Of a DNA stretch of 23,505 nucleotides, positions 742 through 21,276 are shown piece after piece. Location of the stretch: IMG/VR virus record IMGVR_UViG_2925939204_000004, positions 1 through 23,505 of that record; one strand, given 5' to 3'. Each line of letters opens with the position of its first letter. Position 1 is the stretch's first letter. Under the pieces are notes generated by a model that ran no database searches, was not told the origin of the DNA, and saw only the letters and a program-made list of their open reading frames with translations. The DNA comes from a virus. Its lineage: Duplodnaviria > Heunggongvirae > Uroviricota > Caudoviricetes. Made by a program: the position numbers and the translations under genes.

Positions 742-1407
742 TCAATTTTTAAGAGCACTGATACAGAAAAATTGCATGACATTTTTCTTTATTGATTTAA
801 ATAAGCTAAACATTGTGACAGGTTCAAAGCTAGTTAACTCGATGAATTCCTCTCTCATTTGAGAAAGTAACAGCTGACGTACTGATTCAATTTCTGCTGT
901 TTGTTTTCTCAAATATCTTGAGAAAACAAGTAGTTCATCAGCTGTTTTGTTTTGGCCATTTATAAACGTAACAGGTTGCCCTGGCTTAGATATGAGAAAA
1001 AATTGGTTAATTTTATCAAGTAATGGTGGAATTATTTTTTTCCATTCAGCCCATTCTTTTTCACGATGAAACTCCAGACTGTGCTGACATGTTCTTAGTT
1101 GCTGTATATCAATCGCCCAGACCTCACTCTCATCGAGGCAATCTTTCCATTTGCTAATTACATTAATGTCAAATTTTTTGTTCGGTAGATAATTATCTTT
1201 GGCGTGCGCTTCCAGTATAGAGGCAAGAGTACCTGTATATTGCATCAAATTGGTAGATGCTCGGTTTACTAGCTCTGATATTCGATCTAGTTGAGTTGTT
1301 CTAATCTCAAGTGCTTTCTTTTTACGTTCATTTCGTAAAGCAAAATATGCAGCAAGGCAGACTGCAGCAACTGTGGCTGCTGGTGCGATAAAAATTTGCA
1401 TATTCAT
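742..1407 (-). CDS. AT-rich hypothetical membrane-anchored protein (cargo between D and ogr)
   Basis: ORF with AAGGA SD 8 nt before ATG at 1405-1407 (the internal Met of the tracked ORF). N-terminal hydrophobic helix MNMQIFIAPAATVAAVCLAAYFAL, then about 200 hydrophilic residues. GC content is visibly lower than in the flanking D and ogr genes. No family recognised. Confidence 0.5.
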   Translation of the reverse strand: MNMQIFIAPAATVAAVCLAAYFALRNERKKKALEIRTTQLDRISELVNRASTNLMQYTGTLASILEAHAKDNYLPNKKFDINVISKWKDCLDESEVWAIDIQQLRTCQHSLEFHREKEWAEWKKIIPPLLDKINQFFLISKPGQPVTFINGQNKTADELLVFSRYLRKQTAEIESVRQLLLSQMREEFIELTSFEPVTMFSLFKSIKKNVMQFFCISALKN

Positions 1408-1601
1408 AACATGGATCCTTTGACATGGCATTTATGGGGGCTATTTCAGCAGTAATCATTTGTGTGTAAATTTGTTTGCTACAAATTAACATATTCTAAT
1501 GTAAGGCTCTTCTGATTTTGACACCGGGTAGGCTGTCAGATTGGTTATGATTCTTGCTGTAAGCGCGTTAGCAAATGTCAGGGCTAATGCATCTAAGTTG
1601 T

Positions 1602-2711
1602 TTACTCTGTTTCTGCTATCCATTCCGGGATTTTGGCTTCAAGCTCAAGCTGCGTGGTAAAGCCACTGTTATCAATGGTGTGCTCGGCTTTTGCAATGAT
1701 CCAGTCCTGATTATCAATCTCGCTTTTAAATCCTGTTACCGTGCCATGCATTTCGGGGTAGAGCTCTGCTCGTCCACGTGCCAGCGTGATGGAAAATGAT
1801 GCGGCTCCGCGTTGTAGCTGCTGCCACTTTGCCGCCGCTGCGCGTCTTGCTGCCTGCTCGTTCTGATAAGTTTTGCGTAACACAAACACATTGCCTTCCG
1901 CGCCTTCCATATAATCACCTTCACGGCTGCTGCTTTTCTCCTTTTTGGGTTTTGGCGGTTTGCGGCGTTTCACGCTGACTTTTTTCTTTTTCCCGTAATT
2001 AAGATCAAGCCAGTAAGCGCGTACCCCCGTATACGCTTCGCGGTCAGCAATGCGGAACTGATGGCGATCGCCACTGCTGCGCGTGATGGCGAACGAGGGC
2101 AACGGCTGGCCCTGCGCGTTCACGCCACCGCCTGGCATGATGAATAACAGATTACCGCTTTTTACCGTGGTGATTGCGCCCAGCATTTCCGCCATGCGCG
2201 TAAGGAAGGACATGTCGCTTTCTTCGGTCTGGTCGGCGTGGTCGATTTCGATATCCATCAGCATTTCGCTGATTTGCGGTTTCAGACCATACCGATGAGC
2301 GATGGCGGATACCACACGCTCAACGGTCACATCATGCCAGGACACCTCACGTTTAACGTTAAATTCATCCCGAAAATCTGCGCTTCTGGCTGAAACAGTC
2401 AGCCTGTCCGGCGGTCCTTCGTGAGCGATTTCATCAACAATGTAAGTGCCTTTTTCTGTCAGCGGTTCTCCTTTCCAGCCAATGAGAACCGTCAGGCGCG
2501 CGCCCCGTGGCGGTAGCTGCAACTGACCATCCGCATCATCCAGCGTGATGGTGAGCTGGTCCGCCTCAAATCCCCGGTTGTCGGTCAGTGACAGGCTCAT
2601 CAGGCGCTCTGCCACGCCTGACAGCGTTTTACCCTCCGCGAGAATATCAAAATCCGGCATTTTCACGGGGTCTGTGCCCTGACTGAGCAATTGCATGGTG
2701 GTGTCGGTCAT
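1602..2711 (-). CDS. D: P2 gpD-family tail protein (late control gene D)
   Basis: Translation contains SLSLTDNRGFEADQLTITLDDADG, SWHD and a basic KKKKVSVKRRKPPKPKKEK linker, as in gpD. Start placed at the internal ATG (2709-2711) preceded by GGGAGGGAG rather than at the upstream extension. Confidence 0.85.
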   Translation of the reverse strand: MTDTTMQLLSQGTDPVKMPDFDILAEGKTLSGVAERLMSLSLTDNRGFEADQLTITLDDADGQLQLPPRGARLTVLIGWKGEPLTEKGTYIVDEIAHEGPPDRLTVSARSADFRDEFNVKREVSWHDVTVERVVSAIAHRYGLKPQISEMLMDIEIDHADQTEESDMSFLTRMAEMLGAITTVKSGNLLFIMPGGGVNAQGQPLPSFAITRSSGDRHQFRIADREAYTGVRAYWLDLNYGKKKKVSVKRRKPPKPKKEKSSSREGDYMEGAEGNVFVLRKTYQNEQAARRAAAAKWQQLQRGAASFSITLARGRAELYPEMHGTVTGFKSEIDNQDWIIAKAEHTIDNSGFTTQLELEAKIPEWIAETE

Positions 2712-5149: not shown

Positions 5150-7943
5150 TATCCGGGTCGCTTTCAGCGCCGTTGACAGGCTGACCCGACCTGCCGAAAA
5201 CGCCCGCCGCCTGATGGGGCAGTTTGGTGACTCCATTCAGCGAACGCAGGGGGCGATCAAAAATCTCGAGCGTCAGGTGCGTTCATTTGAGCGCGCCCGC
5301 GACGCTGTCAGTAAAGCGGATGCGGGCATCGTGAAAGCACGACGCCAGCTTAACGCCCTAAATCAGTTACAACGCACGGGTACAGTGCTCAGCGAAAAGC
5401 AACAAAAGCTGATGCAGCAGTTAAGCACCCGGCTTGAACGCCTGAATGAATCGCGCACACGGGAAATTCAGAAAATGCGGGAGCTTGGCGGAGAGCTGAA
5501 ACGCCACGGCATTTCCCTGACAGGCAGCGATAACACCATCCAGCAGGCCATCAGACGCACCGAACAGTACAACAACCAGCTTGAACGCGAACGGCAGGCT
5601 CTTGCGCGTGTAACGCGGGCGCGTGAGCGGTATTCGCGCGCGCAGGAAACAGCGGGAAAACTGAAAACAGGTGGTGCGCTGGCAATTGGTGCGGCAGCGG
5701 CGGGCGGCTATGCTGCCGGGCGTTTTTTGCAGCCTGCGATCGGGTTCGGGAAAGAGATGTCCCGCGTTCAGGCACTGACGCGAATCGACAAAAACAGCCC
5801 GCAGTTTAAGGCGCTGCGTGAGCAGGCGTTAAAACTTGGCTCTGAAACGCAGTTCACCGCAGGCGATGCCGCCAGTGGGCAGGCATTTCTTGCAATGGCT
5901 GGCTTCACACCACAGGCCATTCAGGCTGCGCTCCCTGGCGTACTGAGCATGGCAACGGCTGGCGGTATGGACCTCGGTGAGACGGCGGATATTGGCTCAA
6001 ATATTCTGACGCAGTTCGGTCTTTCTGCTGACCAGATGGACCGGGTCGGCGACACACTCACCGCAGCGTTTACCCGTACCAACACTGACCTTCGCGCACT
6101 GGGTGAAACCATGAAATATGCAGGTCCGGTGGCGGGTAAGCTGGGAATATCGCTGGAGCAGGCCGCAGCGATGGCGGGCGTGCTGGCGAATATGGGTATC
6201 AGGGGGAGTGATGCCGGGACGGCAATGCGTGCCAGCCTGGCTCGTCTGGCATCACCGCCAAAGGCGGCAGCAGAGGCGCTGAAAGAGCTTGGCGTGTCTG
6301 TCTCGGATGCCGGGGGCAAAATGCGCCCGATGGAGGATGTGCTGGCTGACCTTTATAAAGCTACCCGCAAATACGGGGAAGTTGACCGGGTATCGTTCTT
6401 TAAGGACATTGCCGGAGAAGAGGCTTTCACATCATTTATGGCCCTCGTTGATGCGGCAGGTGACGGCTCCTTACCCAAACTGAGAAAAGAACTTGAAGGC
6501 GCGCGCGGTGAGGCTGAACGCACGGCAAAGGTTATGGCCAACAACCTTGACGGCGATCTGAAATCACTCAGCAGTGCATGGGAAGGGTTGCGCATCCGCA
6601 TTGCAGATCTGATTGACGGTCCGCTGCGTTCTGTCACGCAGTGGCTCACGCGTGTGGTATCAAAGGTGACGGCGCTGGCGCAGGCCCATCCCGCACTGAC
6701 GCGCCAGCTACTGATTGCAGGCGGTGCGTTGCTGGCAATGACTGCAACGGTTGGCTCGTTGTCGCTGGCTATTGGTGTGCTTGCTGGCCCGCTGGCAAAA
6801 CTGCGTCTTGGCTTTTCCCTCCTGACCGGTTCAATGAATGCTGTCAGACTCCTGCCAGCATTATGGGGAATGGTGACGGGTTCCGTTTCGTTACTGGGGG
6901 GCGCTATCGGGGCGTTGTTCAGTCCGGTCGGTCTTATCGTGGCTGCGCTTGCCGGAGCTGCCGTTCTCATCTGGAAATACTGGGATCCCATCAGGGCATT
7001 TTTTGCCGGGGTGTTCAGCGGGATTATGGAAAGGCTGACCCCGTTGCGCGAAACCTTTGAACGGTTTGGTCCTGTTTTTGACGCAATCGGAAGCGGGATC
7101 AGCCAGGTGTTTAACTGGTTTAAATCGCTGTTGTCACCGATGGAGTCCAGCAAGGAAACGCTGGATAAATGTACCAGTGCTGGCGAGATATTCGGTAACG
7201 TTCTTGGCGGTGCGTTACAACTTGTTCTGACACCTGCAAAAATGCTACTGGATACGCTGGCGTGGATACTTGAAAAACTTGGCGTCCTTCCGGATGAAGC
7301 GGAAAGGGCGCGCAAGAAAATCGAAGACGCACAGCGTGCGGCCATTCTTCAGGACAAGGTTGCCTTACTTCAGGGGGACCTGGCGAAAATCAATCCGCCG
7401 AAGCCTGTGGAAAATGGCAATGGCACCGGAGGTGATAAACCCAAAGACAACAAACCGCTCACAGACAGCAATACCGGGACGCTACGCAGACTCAGCAAAA
7501 TTGCTGATAACACAGGTAAGCTGGTTGATGAGACGAAAAAACGCATTGGCCCCGGCGATATTGTCTTTAAGAACCTGCCCCGCGCACTTGCTGTTCGTGG
7601 GGAGTGGCAGGAGCGGAAGATTGCACAGGTCAGTAAGCCTGCCCCCGCAATTAATATCACCCCCGTGGTCCCGGCTCCGCTGCCTCCGGCGCTGGTCCCT
7701 GTTGTTGCGGCCAGCTCCCGCCCGGTGGCGGAGGCCATACGATCTCCAGTGGCATCAGTTCCTGTAACTTCCCGTAACCGGGAGCCTGTTGCCTCCGGAT
7801 TTGGTGGTGAAATTCATGTTCATCTGCATAACGTTGTTACGCAGAATCCCCGCGAACTGGCGAAACTGGTCGGTGAAATGGTCAGGGCAGAAATGGAACG
7901 GCGCGCCCGTGCTGGGCGTGGCAGTTTTTACGATAAAGATTGA
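5136..7943 (+). CDS. T: Tail tape measure protein (P2 gpT family)
   Basis: About 936 aa with an N-terminal coiled-coil region, Gly/Ala-rich hydrophobic segments and a Pro/Ala-rich tract. Follows E/E'. Start chosen at ATG 5136 (GGGA 9 nt upstream), in the same frame as the tracked ORF. Confidence 0.9.
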   Translation: MKTLDIRVAFSAVDRLTRPAENARRLMGQFGDSIQRTQGAIKNLERQVRSFERARDAVSKADAGIVKARRQLNALNQLQRTGTVLSEKQQKLMQQLSTRLERLNESRTREIQKMRELGGELKRHGISLTGSDNTIQQAIRRTEQYNNQLERERQALARVTRARERYSRAQETAGKLKTGGALAIGAAAAGGYAAGRFLQPAIGFGKEMSRVQALTRIDKNSPQFKALREQALKLGSETQFTAGDAASGQAFLAMAGFTPQAIQAALPGVLSMATAGGMDLGETADIGSNILTQFGLSADQMDRVGDTLTAAFTRTNTDLRALGETMKYAGPVAGKLGISLEQAAAMAGVLANMGIRGSDAGTAMRASLARLASPPKAAAEALKELGVSVSDAGGKMRPMEDVLADLYKATRKYGEVDRVSFFKDIAGEEAFTSFMALVDAAGDGSLPKLRKELEGARGEAERTAKVMANNLDGDLKSLSSAWEGLRIRIADLIDGPLRSVTQWLTRVVSKVTALAQAHPALTRQLLIAGGALLAMTATVGSLSLAIGVLAGPLAKLRLGFSLLTGSMNAVRLLPALWGMVTGSVSLLGGAIGALFSPVGLIVAALAGAAVLIWKYWDPIRAFFAGVFSGIMERLTPLRETFERFGPVFDAIGSGISQVFNWFKSLLSPMESSKETLDKCTSAGEIFGNVLGGALQLVLTPAKMLLDTLAWILEKLGVLPDEAERARKKIEDAQRAAILQDKVALLQGDLAKINPPKPVENGNGTGGDKPKDNKPLTDSNTGTLRRLSKIADNTGKLVDETKKRIGPGDIVFKNLPRALAVRGEWQERKIAQVSKPAPAINITPVVPAPLPPALVPVVAASSRPVAEAIRSPVASVPVTSRNREPVASGFGGEIHVHLHNVVTQNPRELAKLVGEMVRAEMERRARAGRGSFYDKD

Positions 7944-8540: not shown

Positions 8541-9719
8541 TTATAAAGAATTGCTACTTTCTAATTCTGGGTTTCTGGATCTATTTTTACAACCTAAATC
8601 CGAGTGGTAATTCGGTATATCGTTTGTCAAATCTTGTTTGATAGCATTAATTAAGATCATTATGTCGAATTTATGCATATCGTCGCCCCCTTCAGACCTT
8701 AGATGTTCGGATGTGGTGAGTTGAGTCGCTAATTTGCTGTTTGGCCCCCACACAATATTATTTTCGAATTTTCCTTCATGCATTCTGTTATTATATATAC
8801 AGTATTGTCTAATGTTTAATGCACTGGCTAAATGTACAATGGCAGTATCTACAGTTATAACAAAATCAGCATGGCGAACCAATGCAAATGAACATCCGGC
8901 ATCAGAAAATGGAGATAGAGACACATTATCCAATCCATTGTGATTAATCTGTTTTCCCATATTAAAAACTATTGTGTGATATCCCTTAAGGTTATTAAGG
9001 TAAGCTAGTACTTTGTTTATCTGTTCATCAGATAAGGTTCTGCTATTCTGAGAGCCATAAGGGTTAAATATAACTAATTTTTTGTTTTTCTTCCTGAATT
9101 CATTTGCAACAATATTTGCTGGTTCATATATTTTGTTGTCAAAATTAAGCGCTGCAGCATAATTATTATTTTTTATCTTTAGTAAAGATAAAACTTTTTT
9201 CATTCTTTCAGATGTGTGAATGGAACGATTATCGATTATATTTGTATCAAAAATAGTTACGGCAGGATGATTAAAACAGATAGAGTGTTTAGGTCTAAGT
9301 AAATGTAGTGTTTGCAATCTGGTTATCGCTGTGTTATCAAAATTTGAGAAGTCAACAACAAGATCTACATTCAGTTTTTTTATCTTTGCTTTTAGTTCGT
9401 TAAATTTATTTTTCTCGTAAGATATAAAGGCATCCACGCCAACAATATCAGTAAAGAGGAATGATACTCTTGAAGGTGCTATCACATATACCACCATACC
9501 GGATTTTTGAAGTTGTTTAATAAACCCTGAGGTAACGATGCCGTCACCAATGGCTTGCATGTGCATGAAAATGCACACTGTTTTATAACTATCCGGCTGT
9601 AATGATGTTTTCCTTCTGTATCGCATTTTTAGAAATGCCAGTCTGGCCTTCGTCTTTATCTTTTTTGTTTTAATATTTCGCTGTCTGTTAAGCTGTTTTA
9701 ATGATGAAATAACATTCAT
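8541..9719 (-). CDS. GT9-like (heptosyltransferase-fold) glycosyltransferase, AT-rich cargo
   Basis: Very AT-rich ORF. N-terminal VCIFMHMQAIGDGIV...VYVIAPS and C-terminal KKLVIFNPYGSQNSRTLSDEQ and ADFVITVDTAIVHLASALNI resemble GT9 motifs. Start uncertain: the tracked ORF begins at TTG 9779 and the ATG at 9719 has only a weak SD. Confidence 0.5.
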   Translation of the reverse strand: MNVISSLKQLNRQRNIKTKKIKTKARLAFLKMRYRRKTSLQPDSYKTVCIFMHMQAIGDGIVTSGFIKQLQKSGMVVYVIAPSRVSFLFTDIVGVDAFISYEKNKFNELKAKIKKLNVDLVVDFSNFDNTAITRLQTLHLLRPKHSICFNHPAVTIFDTNIIDNRSIHTSERMKKVLSLLKIKNNNYAAALNFDNKIYEPANIVANEFRKKNKKLVIFNPYGSQNSRTLSDEQINKVLAYLNNLKGYHTIVFNMGKQINHNGLDNVSLSPFSDAGCSFALVRHADFVITVDTAIVHLASALNIRQYCIYNNRMHEGKFENNIVWGPNSKLATQLTTSEHLRSEGGDDMHKFDIMILINAIKQDLTNDIPNYHSDLGCKNRSRNPELESSNSL

Positions 9720-9813: not shown

Positions 9814-10413
9814 TTATGCTTGTTTACTCCTTGATTCCACTGGGGAAGCTGGCCACTCAATATCCGGTGCTCTTGATGTATCAACACGGTTCAGCAGCAC
9901 TCGATACTTCTTCCAGGCTTCCAGCAACGAGATTTCTTCCTCCGTTGCGATTTCCAGATCTACAGCATCCTGAAGTGGCGCAATATGCTCACTGGCTACC
10001 TGCATCAGGCTGTTTTTTGTTTCTTCTGCCTCCCGGATCCGGAACAGTTTTTCTGCTTCCGTATCCTTCACCCAGGCTGTGCCGTTCCACTTCTGATATT
10101 CCCCTTCCGGCGACGACCAGGTAACATTTTCCGGTAACGGACCGAGTTCAGAAATAAATAACGCGTCGCCGGAAGCCACGTCATAAACCGTTTTACCACG
10201 ATGATCTTCAACGAGATGCCAAGACGCCCCATCACTGTTGAAAACAGCCACGAAGCCAGCTGGAATATCTGGCGGAGCAATATCAGTACTATTTGCAGGC
10301 AGACCTGTATGAGGTGGAATGTATGCATCACCTTCACCAATAAATTCATTGGTTCCGACCAGCAGATTATAAATTTTTATGGTTCGTGGTTGTTCACTCA
10401 TTCTGAATGCCAT
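9814..10413 (-). CDS. Tail fibre assembly protein (Tfa, P2 gpG-like)
   Basis: 199 aa with conserved C-terminal [26 protein letters not shown]. Its ATG overlaps the stop of the upstream tail fibre ORF (TAATG). Confidence 0.85.
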
Positions 10414-11480: not shown

Positions 11481-11504
11481 CTTACGGGCAGAAGGTACTC
11501 ATGC

Positions 11505-12467
11505 TTAATCGTCCGGATAAATGGTAATGACTTCACCGTCGTAAGTTGCTGCCGCCGCGAAAATATCCCCCGGAATTTCCTGAATGATATTCAGCCCTGT
11601 CATGTGGCGGCTGACCGGGCGGGCATCAGCAATCAACCGCTCCATTTCCAGATACATTTCCTCCGTCACGCCACTGTCCAGCGTGCCGACTTCAACGGTA
11701 AATGTTCCCGGTTCTCCGCCGAACTCCCACCACTCAGACACGCGAATGAGGTATCCCAGCGGCTCAATGGCCCGGCGCAGTGCGCTGATGGTTCCTTTGT
11801 GTCGGTGTATCAGCCATGCATCACGAATCACCTGTCGCTTTGTCTCTTCCGGCCAGTTGCGATCCCAGCGGTCAACGGAAAACGCCCAGGCGAGATAAGG
11901 CAGCAGATGCACCGGGCAGGTGTCCGGCGACCACAGCGTGTTGAGGTCTACCGGAATGTCTGTAACGTCCTGAAGCAGCTTGTTGGTGCTGAAGTTGGAC
12001 TCATCTGCGTGAGACGTGCCGTTGAAACCGATCATGATGCGGTCAAGCGCCACCTGCCGGGCAATCTGTGTGCTGACGCGTGACTGAAAATCAGGGTGTG
12101 CCGCCCAGGCATCAAGCTGCGGATACGAAATAAACGTGTCGTAGTTCACCTGTTCGCACTGATATTTACGGTTTTTCAGATCAACCACGTTATTCGGGTT
12201 ACGGCGTTTTGTGCCGTCATAACTGGTATTCGTGCGCGCAATCGGCCCGGTGGTGTCCAGGAGGATTTTTTCGCCTTTCTGGTCGGTCACACCGAACACG
12301 TTAATTTTTTTTGTAAATTCAGTGCTCTCCTTTACTGCGTTTTCAAAACGCTGCTGCACCGAGGGTTCCACGGTAAATCGCGATACCAGTGCAGATACCG
12401 GGATGTTGTTAAGCGACGCCTGCTGCGCCATATAGCAACCCAGCTTGTTGCGGGTAATATCTGACAT
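11505..12467 (-). CDS. Chimeric ORF: N-terminal half of major capsid protein gpN fused in frame to tail protein gpI (deletion remnant)
   Basis: Residues 1 to about 172 resemble gpN (FTVEPSV, RKYQCEQVNYDTFISYPQLDAWA, IMIGFNGT). From about 11965 downstream the protein resembles gpI (LWSPDTCPVHLLPYLAWAFSVDRWDRNWPEE, LGYLIRVSEWWE, MERLIADARPVSRH). Confidence 0.7.
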   Translation of the reverse strand: MSDITRNKLGCYMAQQASLNNIPVSALVSRFTVEPSVQQRFENAVKESTEFTKKINVFGVTDQKGEKILLDTTGPIARTNTSYDGTKRRNPNNVVDLKNRKYQCEQVNYDTFISYPQLDAWAAHPDFQSRVSTQIARQVALDRIMIGFNGTSHADESNFSTNKLLQDVTDIPVDLNTLWSPDTCPVHLLPYLAWAFSVDRWDRNWPEETKRQVIRDAWLIHRHKGTISALRRAIEPLGYLIRVSEWWEFGGEPGTFTVEVGTLDSGVTEEMYLEMERLIADARPVSRHMTGLNIIQEIPGDIFAAAATYDGEVITIYPDD

Positions 12468-12502
12468 CACCAGATTCATAAAAAATTTGCTCCTTTGTCT
12501 TA

Positions 12503-13339
12503 TCAGAAGTCAGCCAGTTGATCGGAGGCTGCGCCCGTTGCGGTGAACCGGTTCTGCGGATCGCCGTCCTGCGTGCGCAGTTTTTCCTTCAGTGCTGTCA
12601 GCTCTGTGGTCAGTAAAGTGATTTTCTGGCTGTCCTGCTGATGGCGGGTTTCCAGCGCATTAAAACGGTCGATAATGTCGGCCTGTGACGTTGCGACACC
12701 TTCCACCGCTTCCTGAATACGGGAGAAACTGGCGTCATCCGCTTTGCGGCCACGGCCAATAATCCCCATAACGCGGTTAAACCACTGGGTGCCTTCTTCC
12801 TGACGTTGTTCGGTGAGTTCGATAAGTTCTGACTCCATAGCGGCGGTAAACATCGCCACGTCTCCCTGCTGACAGTTGAATGTCATCAGTTGCATACGTT
12901 GTTGTGCCGCAAAGACCAGACGTTCCGTGCCCAGGCTGGCAGGGGTGTCGGTCATTGCCAGCCCGCGCAGGTAAGGGCCTCCCGTGATGGTTGACTGTGG
13001 TTCCAGCTCAATACTGGAGTAAATTTTTTTACCATCGTTAAGCAGGGACATCATGCGAGCGGTCGGCTCAATTTCGGCATACAGTGCCGTGCGGCCTGCC
13101 AGCGGGCCATCGGTTATGTCTTCGGTGCTCAACCCCACAACATCGCCCATAGCGGAAAACTCGCTACCGGGGAGTGGTGACAGGATGTGCTCAATATTCA
13201 CACGTGCACCATAAACGGACGGGTTATAACTGGTGGCGGCAGCTTTCAGCATGTCGCCGTTGATTTCGCGCCCGTCTGCCGTTACACCGGAGACAGCCAC
13301 GCGAAACTTTTTGCGGGATGTCTTTTTTTCATTAGCCAT
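12503..13339 (-). CDS. O: Capsid scaffolding protein (P2 gpO family)
   Basis: Translation MANEKKTSRKKFRVAVSGVTADGREI...VYGARVNIEH resembles gpO. GAGGGG SD precedes ATG 13337-13339; the tracked ORF's upstream extension was rejected. Confidence 0.85.
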   Translation of the reverse strand: MANEKKTSRKKFRVAVSGVTADGREINGDMLKAAATSYNPSVYGARVNIEHILSPLPGSEFSAMGDVVGLSTEDITDGPLAGRTALYAEIEPTARMMSLLNDGKKIYSSIELEPQSTITGGPYLRGLAMTDTPASLGTERLVFAAQQRMQLMTFNCQQGDVAMFTAAMESELIELTEQRQEEGTQWFNRVMGIIGRGRKADDASFSRIQEAVEGVATSQADIIDRFNALETRHQQDSQKITLLTTELTALKEKLRTQDGDPQNRFTATGAASDQLADF

Positions 13340-13499
13340 AGTTTTTGCCCCTCTGACTGGTTCTTCAGTCATGATGGCAAAGCGTAACAGGCTGATACAA
13401 AGGGCTTTTGTTGTAAGAAAACGGCCAGAACAGGGGGTTAAGGAGAACGGTTTCGCGCGCGGGTAATCTTCCTGTAGCGATCTTGAATCATGGTGGTAT

Positions 13500-14105
13500 G
13501 TGCAGGATGGCAAGGATGCGTTCCAGTTTCGCCCTGGCAAAGTGTGCCACCTGATGAATCCTGACATTAACCAGGAAATCTACGGCATGCCGGAATATCT
13601 CGGCGCATTACTCTCGGCCAGCCTGTCTCATTCGGCGGACATGTTCAGAAAACTGTATTACGACAACGGATCCCACGCCGGGTGCATCATCTACATCGGT
13701 GCAGCGCAGGTAAACCGCGAAAGCATGGACTCCCTGAAAGAAACGCTACAGGGTGCACGTGGTGGCGGTGCGTTTAAAAACGTGCTCATTCATGCGCCCA
13801 ACGGGGGCAAAGAGGGGGTGCAAATTTTGCCGTTCCAGCAGATCACCGCAAAGGATGAGTTCATGAATGTTAAGGCGGCATCCCGTGATGATGTGCTGGC
13901 TGCGCACCGCGTTCCGCCGCAACTGATGGGGGCGATGCCGGGTGAAAAAAGTGCGTTTGGTGATGTGGAGAAGGCCGCGCGGGTTTACGCAATTAACGAG
14001 CTGATGCCCGTCATGGAGGCCATGAAGCACATCAATGACTGGCTTGGCGAAGAGGTGATCCGCTTTAACCCTTACGCACTGTTAGATACCCAGCCCACAT
14101 CCTGA
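13500..14105 (+). pseudogene. Portal protein (P2 gpQ family), C-terminal fragment of about 200 aa
   Basis: Contains PDINQEIYGMPEYL and RDDVLAAHRVPPQLMG portal motifs but begins with GTG only 160 bp from the divergent O start. There is no room for the N-terminal portal half or for the terminase gene P. Confidence 0.65.
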
Positions 14106-14130
14106 CGCGCTTCGCTTGTCTGCTGCTTCG

Positions 14131-14157
14131 CCGGGGCATAAAAAATTTATGCCCCGG
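14131..14157 (+). terminator. Perfect 12-bp-stem hairpin (CCGGGGCATAAA aaa TTTATGCCCCGG) after the portal fragment
   Basis: 27-nt perfect palindrome 26 nt after the Q stop. No U tract follows, so it may be a structural or recognition element rather than a terminator. Confidence 0.3.
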
Positions 14158-14443
14158 CTCTCCAGCTCCTGTATCAATCAGATAATTTCACGACGCTTTT
14201 CTGCTTATTGCCATCATCGGCGGTCAGACTCTTACGCAATCCCACCGCGTTGACTGCATGTTCTTCGCCGCCTCAGTGCGATTTTGACGGCCTTACCTTT
14301 CACCCCATCAAATCAGAATCCCTCACGTATTTTTCACGCTCAGCGTGAGAAATACAGCCATTCTGTTGTGTCTCTGCGACATCGTTCAGGGAATGCTATT
14401 TACCCCCTGAAACGCGGGCTGTTCCCCCGTCACCTGCGCGCAG

Positions 14444-14487: not shown

Positions 14488-14530
14488 AGCCGCCACGCGG
14501 GCCGGAAGGGCAAAAAGTCGTTCAAAAAAA

Positions 14531-14638: not shown

Positions 14639-15157
14639 TCATTCGAAACTGGCAAGAATCTGTTCTCGAACAGAAGATTTCATCGTTAACCCACGATCTA
14701 GGAAAAATTGGAAATGCATTAAGGCTTGTTGTTTGTGTATAAGTCTCCTGCGCACAGCCTCTTGAAGTAGCCCTCCGTGGCGGGCGGCTTTTACACCGCG
14801 TTCCGCACACGTTTTATAAACCGCATTATCCGCCGAAAGACATGTTGCATCATGTATTCTCGCGTTAACAACGCAGCTTATGTCCGCATACTTCAATGCT
14901 CTCCTGCGATTTTTTATCTCAGCCATTTCAATAAAATGTTCAGGTTCGTAATCATTGGTGAAATTGTATGGAAGTTGCAGGCGTGTAAGCTGTTCCTGAA
15001 CATCAAGATTGTATTTAGCTTTTAGTTCCTCGCAGACATAGGGGTCAATCCACACACCACCCGGGTAAATTTGCCAGATAATATCTAAGCATTTACCTTC
15101 GTAAAAATCAGACAGTACATTCGTATCGATAACACATCTGGGGCATTCAAACGGCAT
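14639..15157 (-). CDS. PIN-like (VapC/DUF4411-like) putative nuclease; toxin or effector candidate
   Basis: Starts at ATG 15155-15157, overlapping the upstream gene's stop by 11 nt. N-terminus CVIDTNVLSDF with downstream acidic residues (CEELK, IHDATCLSADN) spaced as in PIN folds. AT-rich. Confidence 0.6.
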   Translation of the reverse strand: MPFECPRCVIDTNVLSDFYEGKCLDIIWQIYPGGVWIDPYVCEELKAKYNLDVQEQLTRLQLPYNFTNDYEPEHFIEMAEIKNRRRALKYADISCVVNARIHDATCLSADNAVYKTCAERGVKAARHGGLLQEAVRRRLIHKQQALMHFQFFLDRGLTMKSSVREQILASFE

Positions 15158-16292
15158 CCTCTCCGGCCTCCTGTTCGTCGTACCATTCATCCAGAAGATT
15201 GCTGAGAGCTTTTCTGTCTAATTCTAAAAGTTCAGATATGAAGGTTTCCGACGCGGAACCGGCTTCCCATGCTTTACGCGATAAGACGGTTAGGCGACCT
15301 TTATAATTTAGTGCTTCCCTAATGGGATTTGGCTCGTGTCTCTTCCAACCTTTACGATTGGCGGTTGCCCATAGGTATCTAGTGTTTTGTTGATTAATTA
15401 AATTACATTTACTAAGACGATCGATGATGCAAGTGGCTGATACTCTGAAAATGCTTTTTAGTCTAAGGACGGTTTCCTCATACGCCCATCCACCACCTTG
15501 CATGACGAATTGTTTTCGCAATGCGCTTTCTGGTACCAAAAAACAAGCAGCAAAGTGATTAGCAACTTTTTCTTCCGGTGAAATTGCTTTGCCATTAGTT
15601 TTATAGCTTTTAGCAGGGCCATGATACTCATCACGGTGGAAGATAAGATGAGCATATTCATGGCAAATACTGAAGATTTGACGTTCTATTGAAATGCTGT
15701 CGTGAACATTTACATAAATCGCGGTACCGTATTTGTTCGAAAACGCAGAAAATCCGAATACCATCCCTTTATCGGTTTCTTCGCGATTGAACGGGATTAC
15801 TCGAATATCCGATGCTTCCAAAATGGCTACAATGTCACCAACGCAAGTAGCGTTTCCTATACCAAGACGGAAACGTTCTTCCATAGCCTTATCTTCGACT
15901 CTTCGCAAATCTTCTGCTTTGGCGGTAAAAATAGGCATTGAGTTAGGAAGATCTTCTGGCAAATTAGCATCAGCAGCTTCCTCAATTGCATTGATATTTT
16001 TTAACTTTTCAATCAACTCATTGCGAAGTTTGGCATCCAACAAATCCGGACTATCTGCTCGCATTGCAAAACGAAACTCGCCATCATCTTGCTCATAAAA
16101 ATACCCGATAGGCTTATCGAAAATCTTGCAGAGCATGATGAGTTGGGTAACGCTTGGGACGCCTAACGCCTGCTCAAACTTACTGTAGGTTTGACGAACA
16201 ACACCGATCGCATCTGCGACGGCGCTTGCACTCATTCCCGCGTCGTTTCTGGCCTGAACCAAGCGTTCTGCTATACGCTGTTGAATGTTCAT
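15147..16292 (-). CDS. XRE-family HTH fused to an ImmA/IrrE-type (COG2856/M78) zinc metallopeptidase
   Basis: N-terminal HTH (QRIAERLVQARNDAGMSASAVADAIGVVRQTYSKFE) and an intact HEXXH motif in SICHEYAHLIFH. AGGTGA SD precedes the start. AT-rich. Confidence 0.7.
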   Translation of the reverse strand: MNIQQRIAERLVQARNDAGMSASAVADAIGVVRQTYSKFEQALGVPSVTQLIMLCKIFDKPIGYFYEQDDGEFRFAMRADSPDLLDAKLRNELIEKLKNINAIEEAADANLPEDLPNSMPIFTAKAEDLRRVEDKAMEERFRLGIGNATCVGDIVAILEASDIRVIPFNREETDKGMVFGFSAFSNKYGTAIYVNVHDSISIERQIFSICHEYAHLIFHRDEYHGPAKSYKTNGKAISPEEKVANHFAACFLVPESALRKQFVMQGGGWAYEETVLRLKSIFRVSATCIIDRLSKCNLINQQNTRYLWATANRKGWKRHEPNPIREALNYKGRLTVLSRKAWEAGSASETFISELLELDRKALSNLLDEWYDEQEAGEDAV

Positions 16293-21117: not shown

Positions 21118-21276
21118 CTACGAGTAGTTATTGCTGGCTTGAGGTTCATTTCTGTTTAATTCCGTGCATGCTGTAGAAGAAATCAAAAGTGTTAATCCAT
21201 GCTCATCGCGGTATGGGTAGAACGCCGCCAAACGCTCAAAATCCGCTTGCTCGTATGTGTTCAAGAGCTTTGTCAT
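21118..21276 (-). CDS. Small ORF (52 aa) in the cox position; uncertain
   Basis: ATG 21274-21276 to TAG 21118-21120, first ORF divergent from C. Weak SD and no resemblance to Cox. Confidence 0.2.
   Translation of the reverse strand: MTKLLNTYEQADFERLAAFYPYRDEHGLTLLISSTACTELNRNEPQASNNYS

Follow-up and report, generated by a model that had tools for sequence, protein, structure and literature searches.

A 2,186-bp deletion across the terminase and portal genes of a defective P88-like prophage in Escherichia coli

Why does a P2-like prophage carry the end of a portal gene and no terminase gene next to an intact gene O, and what is the short reading frame that precedes this portal fragment in the same frame? 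The question is raised by positions 13340-14105 of the 23,505-nt stretch of DNA analysed here (the window, by which the whole stretch is meant). A preliminary description, made from the sequence alone, proposed that a second deletion in the element had removed gene P and part of gene Q. Its reference was the gene order of P2, and the P2 record indeed has Q and P divergent from O. The distance that had drawn attention to the locus is likewise correct, since exactly 160 bp (13340-13499) lie between the start of O and the plus-strand ORF at 13500-14105. Gene O itself (12503-13339, minus strand) is an intact capsid scaffold/protease gene encoding a gpO of 278 aa, which RefSeq labels GPO family capsid scaffolding protein and which matches Phage_GPO over positions 2-267 of 268 in a Pfam profile search (E 6.8e-85). 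The gpO start codon (13337-13339) marks one edge of the divergent O/P late-promoter spacer.

The deletion and its junction

A tblastn search of the whole window with the terminase large subunit of Escherichia phage P88 (gp24) as query found no terminase large subunit, in agreement with the proposed absence of P; no gpP-like sequence, as defined by Terminase_5, Terminase_6N and Terminase_6C together, is present in the window. The extent of the loss was determined from relatives. When the segment 12400-15200 was compared by megablast with 5,426 complete E. coli genomes, the matches broke at query positions ~1075-1077 in all genomes except five. Strain 165 (NZ_CP020509.1) has this degraded prophage too, likewise inserted between ihfA and btuC, but neither P (1,752 bp) nor Q (1,047 bp) is damaged there, and the order is O, 154-bp spacer, P, Q. 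Around the break, window and strain 165 agree without a mismatch over the 1,077 bp to its left and the 1,727 bp to its right; the left match ends at 13476 and the right match begins at 13474. The deletion junction (13474-13476, no strand), identified by this flank comparison, is a 3-bp GTA microhomology of the P leader on the left and Q codons 139/140 on the right.

Relative to strain 165 and to P88, the deletion measures 2,186 bp and comprises 17 bp of the P leader with its Shine-Dalgarno sequence, all 583 codons of P and Q codons 1-139. What is left of Q is a portal (gpQ) pseudogene of codons 140-348 and the stop codon (13476-14105, plus strand), delimited by alignment to the portals of P88, P2 and strain 165. 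Because P88 has the same O/spacer/P/Q dimensions and a spacer identical through 13476, the intact state is ancestral. An orthologous locus with identical flanks thus has intact genes, and the junction can be defined, as is the case for a pseudogene formed by deletion. A directly visible consequence is the loss of the terminase ATPase/nuclease together with the portal N-terminus, its start codon and its ribosome-binding site. The proposed second deletion, taking P and a 5' part of Q, is therefore real, and it is the estimate of half of Q that has to be corrected, to 40%.

Most likely, a single illegitimate or slipped-strand recombination event across the 3-bp GTA would have linked Q codon 139/140 to a position 17 bp ahead of the P start codon. 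As support for a microhomology-mediated mechanism the 3-bp overlap is weak evidence, overlaps of at least 3 bp being expected, by a rough estimate, in ~5% of random junctions. Other deletions in the element also have short junction overlaps, namely GGTAC (5 bp) and TA (2 bp). We consider it very probable that one 2,186-bp deletion in an already defective P88-like prophage left a portal pseudogene devoid of a start, and that clonal, neutral erosion accounts for its present state. The process is nothing beyond ordinary deletional prophage decay.

The retained spacer and a possible decoy role of the remnant

The divergent O-P intergenic spacer, the late-promoter region, is kept over 137 of its 154 bp (13340-13476, no strand), as judged by its identity to intact phages. 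Through position 13476 it is 100% identical in P88, Chuche, 503458 and Shae_phiSM, and a base-by-base comparison with strain 165 places the loss at the last 17 bp ahead of the P ATG, the Shine-Dalgarno sequence GGGGGAG among them. In the P2 record, transcription of P begins 23 nt before its ATG, and a terminator stands directly after Q; judged by this distance, the late P promoter probably survives the deletion. In an alignment made to locate the late promoters and the Ogr site, the O-P spacer matched its P2 counterpart poorly. The spacer lacks the motif TGT-N12-ACA, which is no more frequent in the window than chance would have it, and a sigma-70 scan gave no promoter in the O-P region. With no promoter motif placed and the P2 spacer poorly alignable, the argument for promoter survival is solely one of analogy with P2 distances. 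A hairpin with a perfect 13-bp stem and a 3-nt loop, recognized as an inverted repeat, lies 25 nt past the Q stop codon (14130-14158, plus strand), and by its position is probably the counterpart of the P2 terminator tQ of the P-Q operon, at which transcription would be expected to end. The ogr gene is kept in the window at 332-592 and, by the same analogy with P2, the portal fragment may still be transcribed when Ogr is present.

In the region around the spacer, gpO shares only 80.6% identity with its P88 counterpart and, at the DNA level, is 98.8% identical to the Gemsvirus phage 500465-2, whereas the N fragment (11964-12479) and the O-P spacer (13340-13476) that flank it are both 100% identical to P88. 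Judged by sequence identity, this difference between gpO and its P88-identical flanks indicates mosaicism.

Retention of ogr, of the spacer to within 17 bp of the P ATG, of the terminator hairpin and of a frame that is open from 13467 to 14105 is what one would expect if the remnant had been domesticated as a decoy. The Ogr-dependent late promoter would then express the truncated portal upon infection by a P2-like phage and the product would poison the portal ring of the invader, a form of superinfection interference. However, no start codon is accompanied by a good Shine-Dalgarno sequence, the in-frame GTG at 13500 being preceded by a weak GGTGG. The junction is moreover rare, with six occurrences in the 5,426 genomes, and clonal; the same element has several other random-looking deletions; and the 100% identity to the ancestor gives no sign of selection either way. 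The fragment has since been deleted in one member of the lineage, for which reason the remnant appears to be dispensable. We therefore regard domestication as very improbable. A variant in which a GTG- or ATG-initiated portal piece of ~180-200 aa co-assembles with the portal rings of superinfecting P2/P88-like phages, and so turns the remnant by accident into a dominant-negative gene of defence, is just as improbable, and nothing positive speaks for it. Neutral erosion of a portal pseudogene remains the preferred reading.

Identity of the portal remnant and of the 31-codon ORF

The ORF at 13500-14105 (plus strand) had been described as a 201-aa ORF with C-terminal portal motifs, and both the reading frame, which opens with a GTG, and its portal identity are confirmed. 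Its limits are those of a mechanical ORF call, as it aligns from residue 1 to 201 with portal residues 148-348 and the GTG, far from being a true start, encodes the internal Val148 of the portal. The portal-derived sequence begins at 13476/13477 and not at 13500, so that 209 of 348 codons (60% of the gene) are kept. The remnant matches Pfam Phage_portal (PF04860) over profile positions 97-294 of 321 (E 2.5e-13) and NCBIfam portal_PBSX (TIGR01540) over positions 113-318 of 320 (E 2.2e-47, 161.9 bits), just below the TIGR01540 equivalog cut-off of 166.05 bits, and the intact portal of strain 165 matches TIGR01540 over positions 1-318 with 216.9 bits. Significant matches to both profiles place the sequence in the portal family, and the window copy has neither the full coverage nor the above-cut-off score of a complete portal. 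Its amino-acid sequence agrees fully with P88 portal residues 140-348 (100% identity) and is 45-49% identical to P2 gpQ over residues ~138-344.

In P2-like phages, the start of Q is translationally coupled to the end of P. Both the Q start and the overlap of the P stop codon with the Q start lie inside the deleted 2,186 bp, and the window copy has no start codon and ribosome-binding site of its own. The window copy is hence a pseudogene derived from a member of the portal family and not a functional member, and its product, if made, would presumably have no portal function. The feature itself was already known, as RefSeq annotates the remnant as a portal pseudogene under the PGAP label 'phage portal protein, incomplete, missing N-terminus'.

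Could the ORF nevertheless be a complete, free-standing small protein with a family of its own? The unbroken run of 201 codons with a GTG start is compatible with this, but the ORF is 100% identical, end to end, to residues 148-348 of the 348-aa portal of P88 and strain 165, and aligns with P2 gpQ over residues 155-339 (48.6% identity). It covers TIGR01540 only from 113 to 318 of 320 with a score under the cut-off, and its GTG is an internal Val codon. In addition, the full gene occupies the orthologous locus in nine genomes with the N::I deletion described below, and the ORF is deleted in the sixth genome of the lineage. The alignment to gpQ that had been suggested as a check thus returns the C-terminal part of a portal, and we consider the reading as a complete small protein exceedingly unlikely.

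The second feature of the locus is a 31-codon ORF followed by TAA (13371-13466, plus strand). As the preliminary description stated, 13371-14105 can be read in one frame, as MMAKRNRLIQRAFVVRKRPEQGVKENGFARG, a single TAA at 13464-13466 and then SSCSDLESWWYVQDGK with its continuation, the frame being open from 13467 onwards. It was suggested on this basis that an in-frame fusion of P to Q had later been hit by a nonsense mutation, with a one-in-three coincidence as the alternative. In such a fusion, the 31-codon ORF would supply the N-terminus of P and the in-frame remnant the C-terminal part of Q, the TAA having arisen later by mutation; the single frame with one stop codon in between is what speaks for it. 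However, the 31-codon ORF with its TAA recurs without a single change in the O-P spacer of P88, Chuche, 503458 and strain 165, all of which have P intact; there it lies upstream of the P ATG and shares the frame of P. The only possible P start in these intact genomes is the ATG located 10 codons past that TAA, with no ATG, GTG or TTG between the TAA and the annotated P ATG, and the Pfam Terminase_5 match begins at residue 6 of the annotated P protein. In the window, the deletion breakpoint (13476/13477) lies 3' of the TAA and no P codons are kept. The ORF and its stop codon are therefore ancestral intergenic sequence, seen 5' of intact P in strain 165 and in four phages, and not a fragment of P.

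The peptide itself agrees with this assignment. It has no Pfam or NCBIfam match and, in the alignments proposed as a check, no significant similarity to gpP or gpQ, the best blastp-short hit being to gpP with E 0.35 in a four-sequence database. ORF residues 8-18 (LIQRAFVVRKR; window 13392-13424) weakly resemble the first 10 residues of gpP (MIQDAFVRQR; L002 5835-5864), a resemblance that is present in intact phages as well and is probably due to chance. Among slightly diverged phages, seven of the eight substitutions in the 31-codon ORF are non-synonymous, a 1-bp deletion shifts the end of the ORF in 500465-2, and among the phage annotations only that of Chuche has a gene call on it. Most likely, the 31-codon ORF is not a gene and consists of ordinary intergenic (late-promoter) sequence. 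The suggested fusion is thus refuted, its probability being minimal, and the frame shared with the portal remnant is a coincidence. For similar cases, in which a short ORF stands in frame with a neighbouring gene fragment, intact relatives should be checked before a fusion is called.

The lineage, its other deletions and the known relatives

The P-Q junction occurs in six of the 5,426 complete E. coli genomes. Five show it in full; in the sixth, NZ_CM151386.1, the same junction was followed by a further deletion from ~13500 into parM. The six carriers originate from India, Viet Nam, Pakistan, Canada and a reference isolate bank. Nothing specific favours an assembly or sequencing artefact such as a collapsed region, and since six complete genomes, sequenced independently of one another and coming from different countries and laboratories, agree exactly in the junction, this explanation can be dismissed. 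The distribution of the carriers fits clonal inheritance in a small lineage that includes strain MS6193, which belongs to ST101 (bioRxiv 10.1101/860726).

The P-Q deletion is one of several. The N::I deletion (junction 11964-11966), which took M, L, X, the lysis genes, R, S, V, W and J, fused codons 1-172 of the capsid gene N to codons 11-163 of the baseplate gene I in one 324-codon N'-'I ORF (11505-12479, minus strand). This junction is present in 15 of the 5,426 complete genomes, and all six carriers of the P-Q junction are among the 15; this nesting shows that the P-Q deletion is the later of the two. The prophage was consequently already dead when P and Q were lost, with its capsid, small terminase, lysis and baseplate genes gone. 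In comparison with strain 165, the window further lacks 1,022 bp in the tail-fibre gene H, in an out-of-frame deletion with the 5-bp GGTAC overlap (11494-11498), and 1,660 bp in the early region, with the 2-bp TA overlap (21193-21194). The latter deletion took, among others, the gene of a DNA-binding protein next to C and the DUF4761 and DUF4754 genes. In MS6193 and Ecol_224, H is intact alongside the P-Q and early-region deletions, and as there are thus P-Q carriers with full-length H, the H deletion is later. The early-region deletion accompanies the P-Q deletion in all six genomes. The order of events is therefore the N::I deletion, the P-Q deletion, the H deletion and, in one genome, loss of the remnant itself. 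The P-Q junction can be used as a lineage marker, and the series of deletions provides data on junction microhomology. The value of the locus is modest and lies in being a clean, base-resolved case of stepwise prophage erosion in one E. coli lineage; the rest is bookkeeping.

In NZ_CM151386.1, positions 6001-6260 of the extracted locus (L005) correspond to window ~13500 to ~17100, and this genome has lost the portal remnant, the expected cos region, the PIN/HTH pair described below, parR and the 3' part of parM; its feature list shows ISEcp1 at the same locus. A search of the window for the 19-nt P2 cos sequence with up to three mismatches gave no match. The P88_4B11 record, which is linear, has its end at the counterpart of window position 14512.

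By gene content and order, the element is a P88-type prophage (Peduoviridae, Xuanwuvirus) and a defective member of this type. The window reads hok, D, FI-FII-E-E'-T-U on the opposite strand, G/H, then N-O / P-Q, parMR, A, C and int. Identities to P88 proteins are 97-100% for D, FI, FII, E, T, U, N', I', Q', ParM and ParR. Measured against the P88 protein inventory, the window retains hok, D, FI, FII, E, E', T, U and the tail-fibre assembly gene, residues 11-163 of I, 1-172 of N, O, residues 140-348 of Q, ParM, ParR, A, C and int. From the same inventory, M, L, X, the holin, the endolysin, R, S, V, W, J, the early cox-side genes and P are absent from the window. For H, nothing in the window can be aligned with P88 gp39, and a divergent H remnant is present. 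Two further candidate rearrangements were rejected. The FI-U block is not an inversion, as its opposite-strand arrangement is native to P88, and D is not truncated, its ORF being complete and 99% identical to P88 D over residues 1-366. For the gpD ORF (1602-2711, minus strand), PGAP gives the full 1,110-bp gene in CH468 alone and in most related genomes calls no more than 801 bp, as a 'VgrG/Pvc8 family' CDS, which is an inconsistency of annotation and not a truncation.

Several further features of the window were noted. Between the portal end and parMR (14639-16292, minus strand), where P88 has gp19-gp20, the window has a cargo pair composed of a PIN-domain protein of 172 aa and an overlapping 381-aa HTH protein, the latter with a weak match to the spr1629 repressor/antitoxin family (E 2.5e-24, far under the cut-off). 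The two may form a toxin-antitoxin or defence module. At 8541-9719 (minus strand) lies a family 9 glycosyltransferase gene, a moron-like cargo gene at the place where P88 has an invertible tail-fibre segment and a DNA invertase; in CH468 the gene is broken by ISKpn26. A full-length Rfam IS009 match (RF02111; 218.5 bits, gathering score 117) is located at 9872-10070 (minus strand) inside the tail-fibre assembly gene. The hypothetical ORF at 742-1431 (minus strand), between ogr and D, is a repeated IS target at ~1131-1135 in relatives, with IS3 inserted in strain 165 and IS1A in AR_0128/AR_0118, and is uninterrupted in the window. No listed complete genome matches the window as a single collinear block.

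Among the known relatives, P88 (Xuanwuvirus P88, NC_026014), with gp23 as portal and gp24 as terminase large subunit, has the same gene order and sizes as the intact state, namely O, a 154-bp spacer, P of 1,752 bp and Q of 1,047 bp. Whereas P (583 aa) and Q (348 aa) are complete in P88, the window retains only 209 codons of Q and nothing of P. The prophage of strain 165 resembles the window in its site and its N::I deletion and is identical or 99.97-99.98% identical over the shared blocks (4 differences in 23.5 kb). In contrast to the window, it has kept P, Q, full-length H and the 1.66 kb of early genes, and it carries the IS3 insertion. It represents the stage just before the P-Q deletion. 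P2 has the same divergent O / P-Q organization and a terminator after Q, but belongs to another genus (Peduovirus) and its spacer cannot be aligned with that of the window. Cryptic remnants of the P2 family arise by deletional decay, as exemplified by the ogrK/yegZ P2 remnant of E. coli K-12. The window element is similar to remnants of this type in that morphogenetic genes were lost stepwise and truncated genes were left behind. However, at ~23 kb and with the tail sheath/tube/tape-measure block, A, C, int and ogr intact, it is far less eroded.
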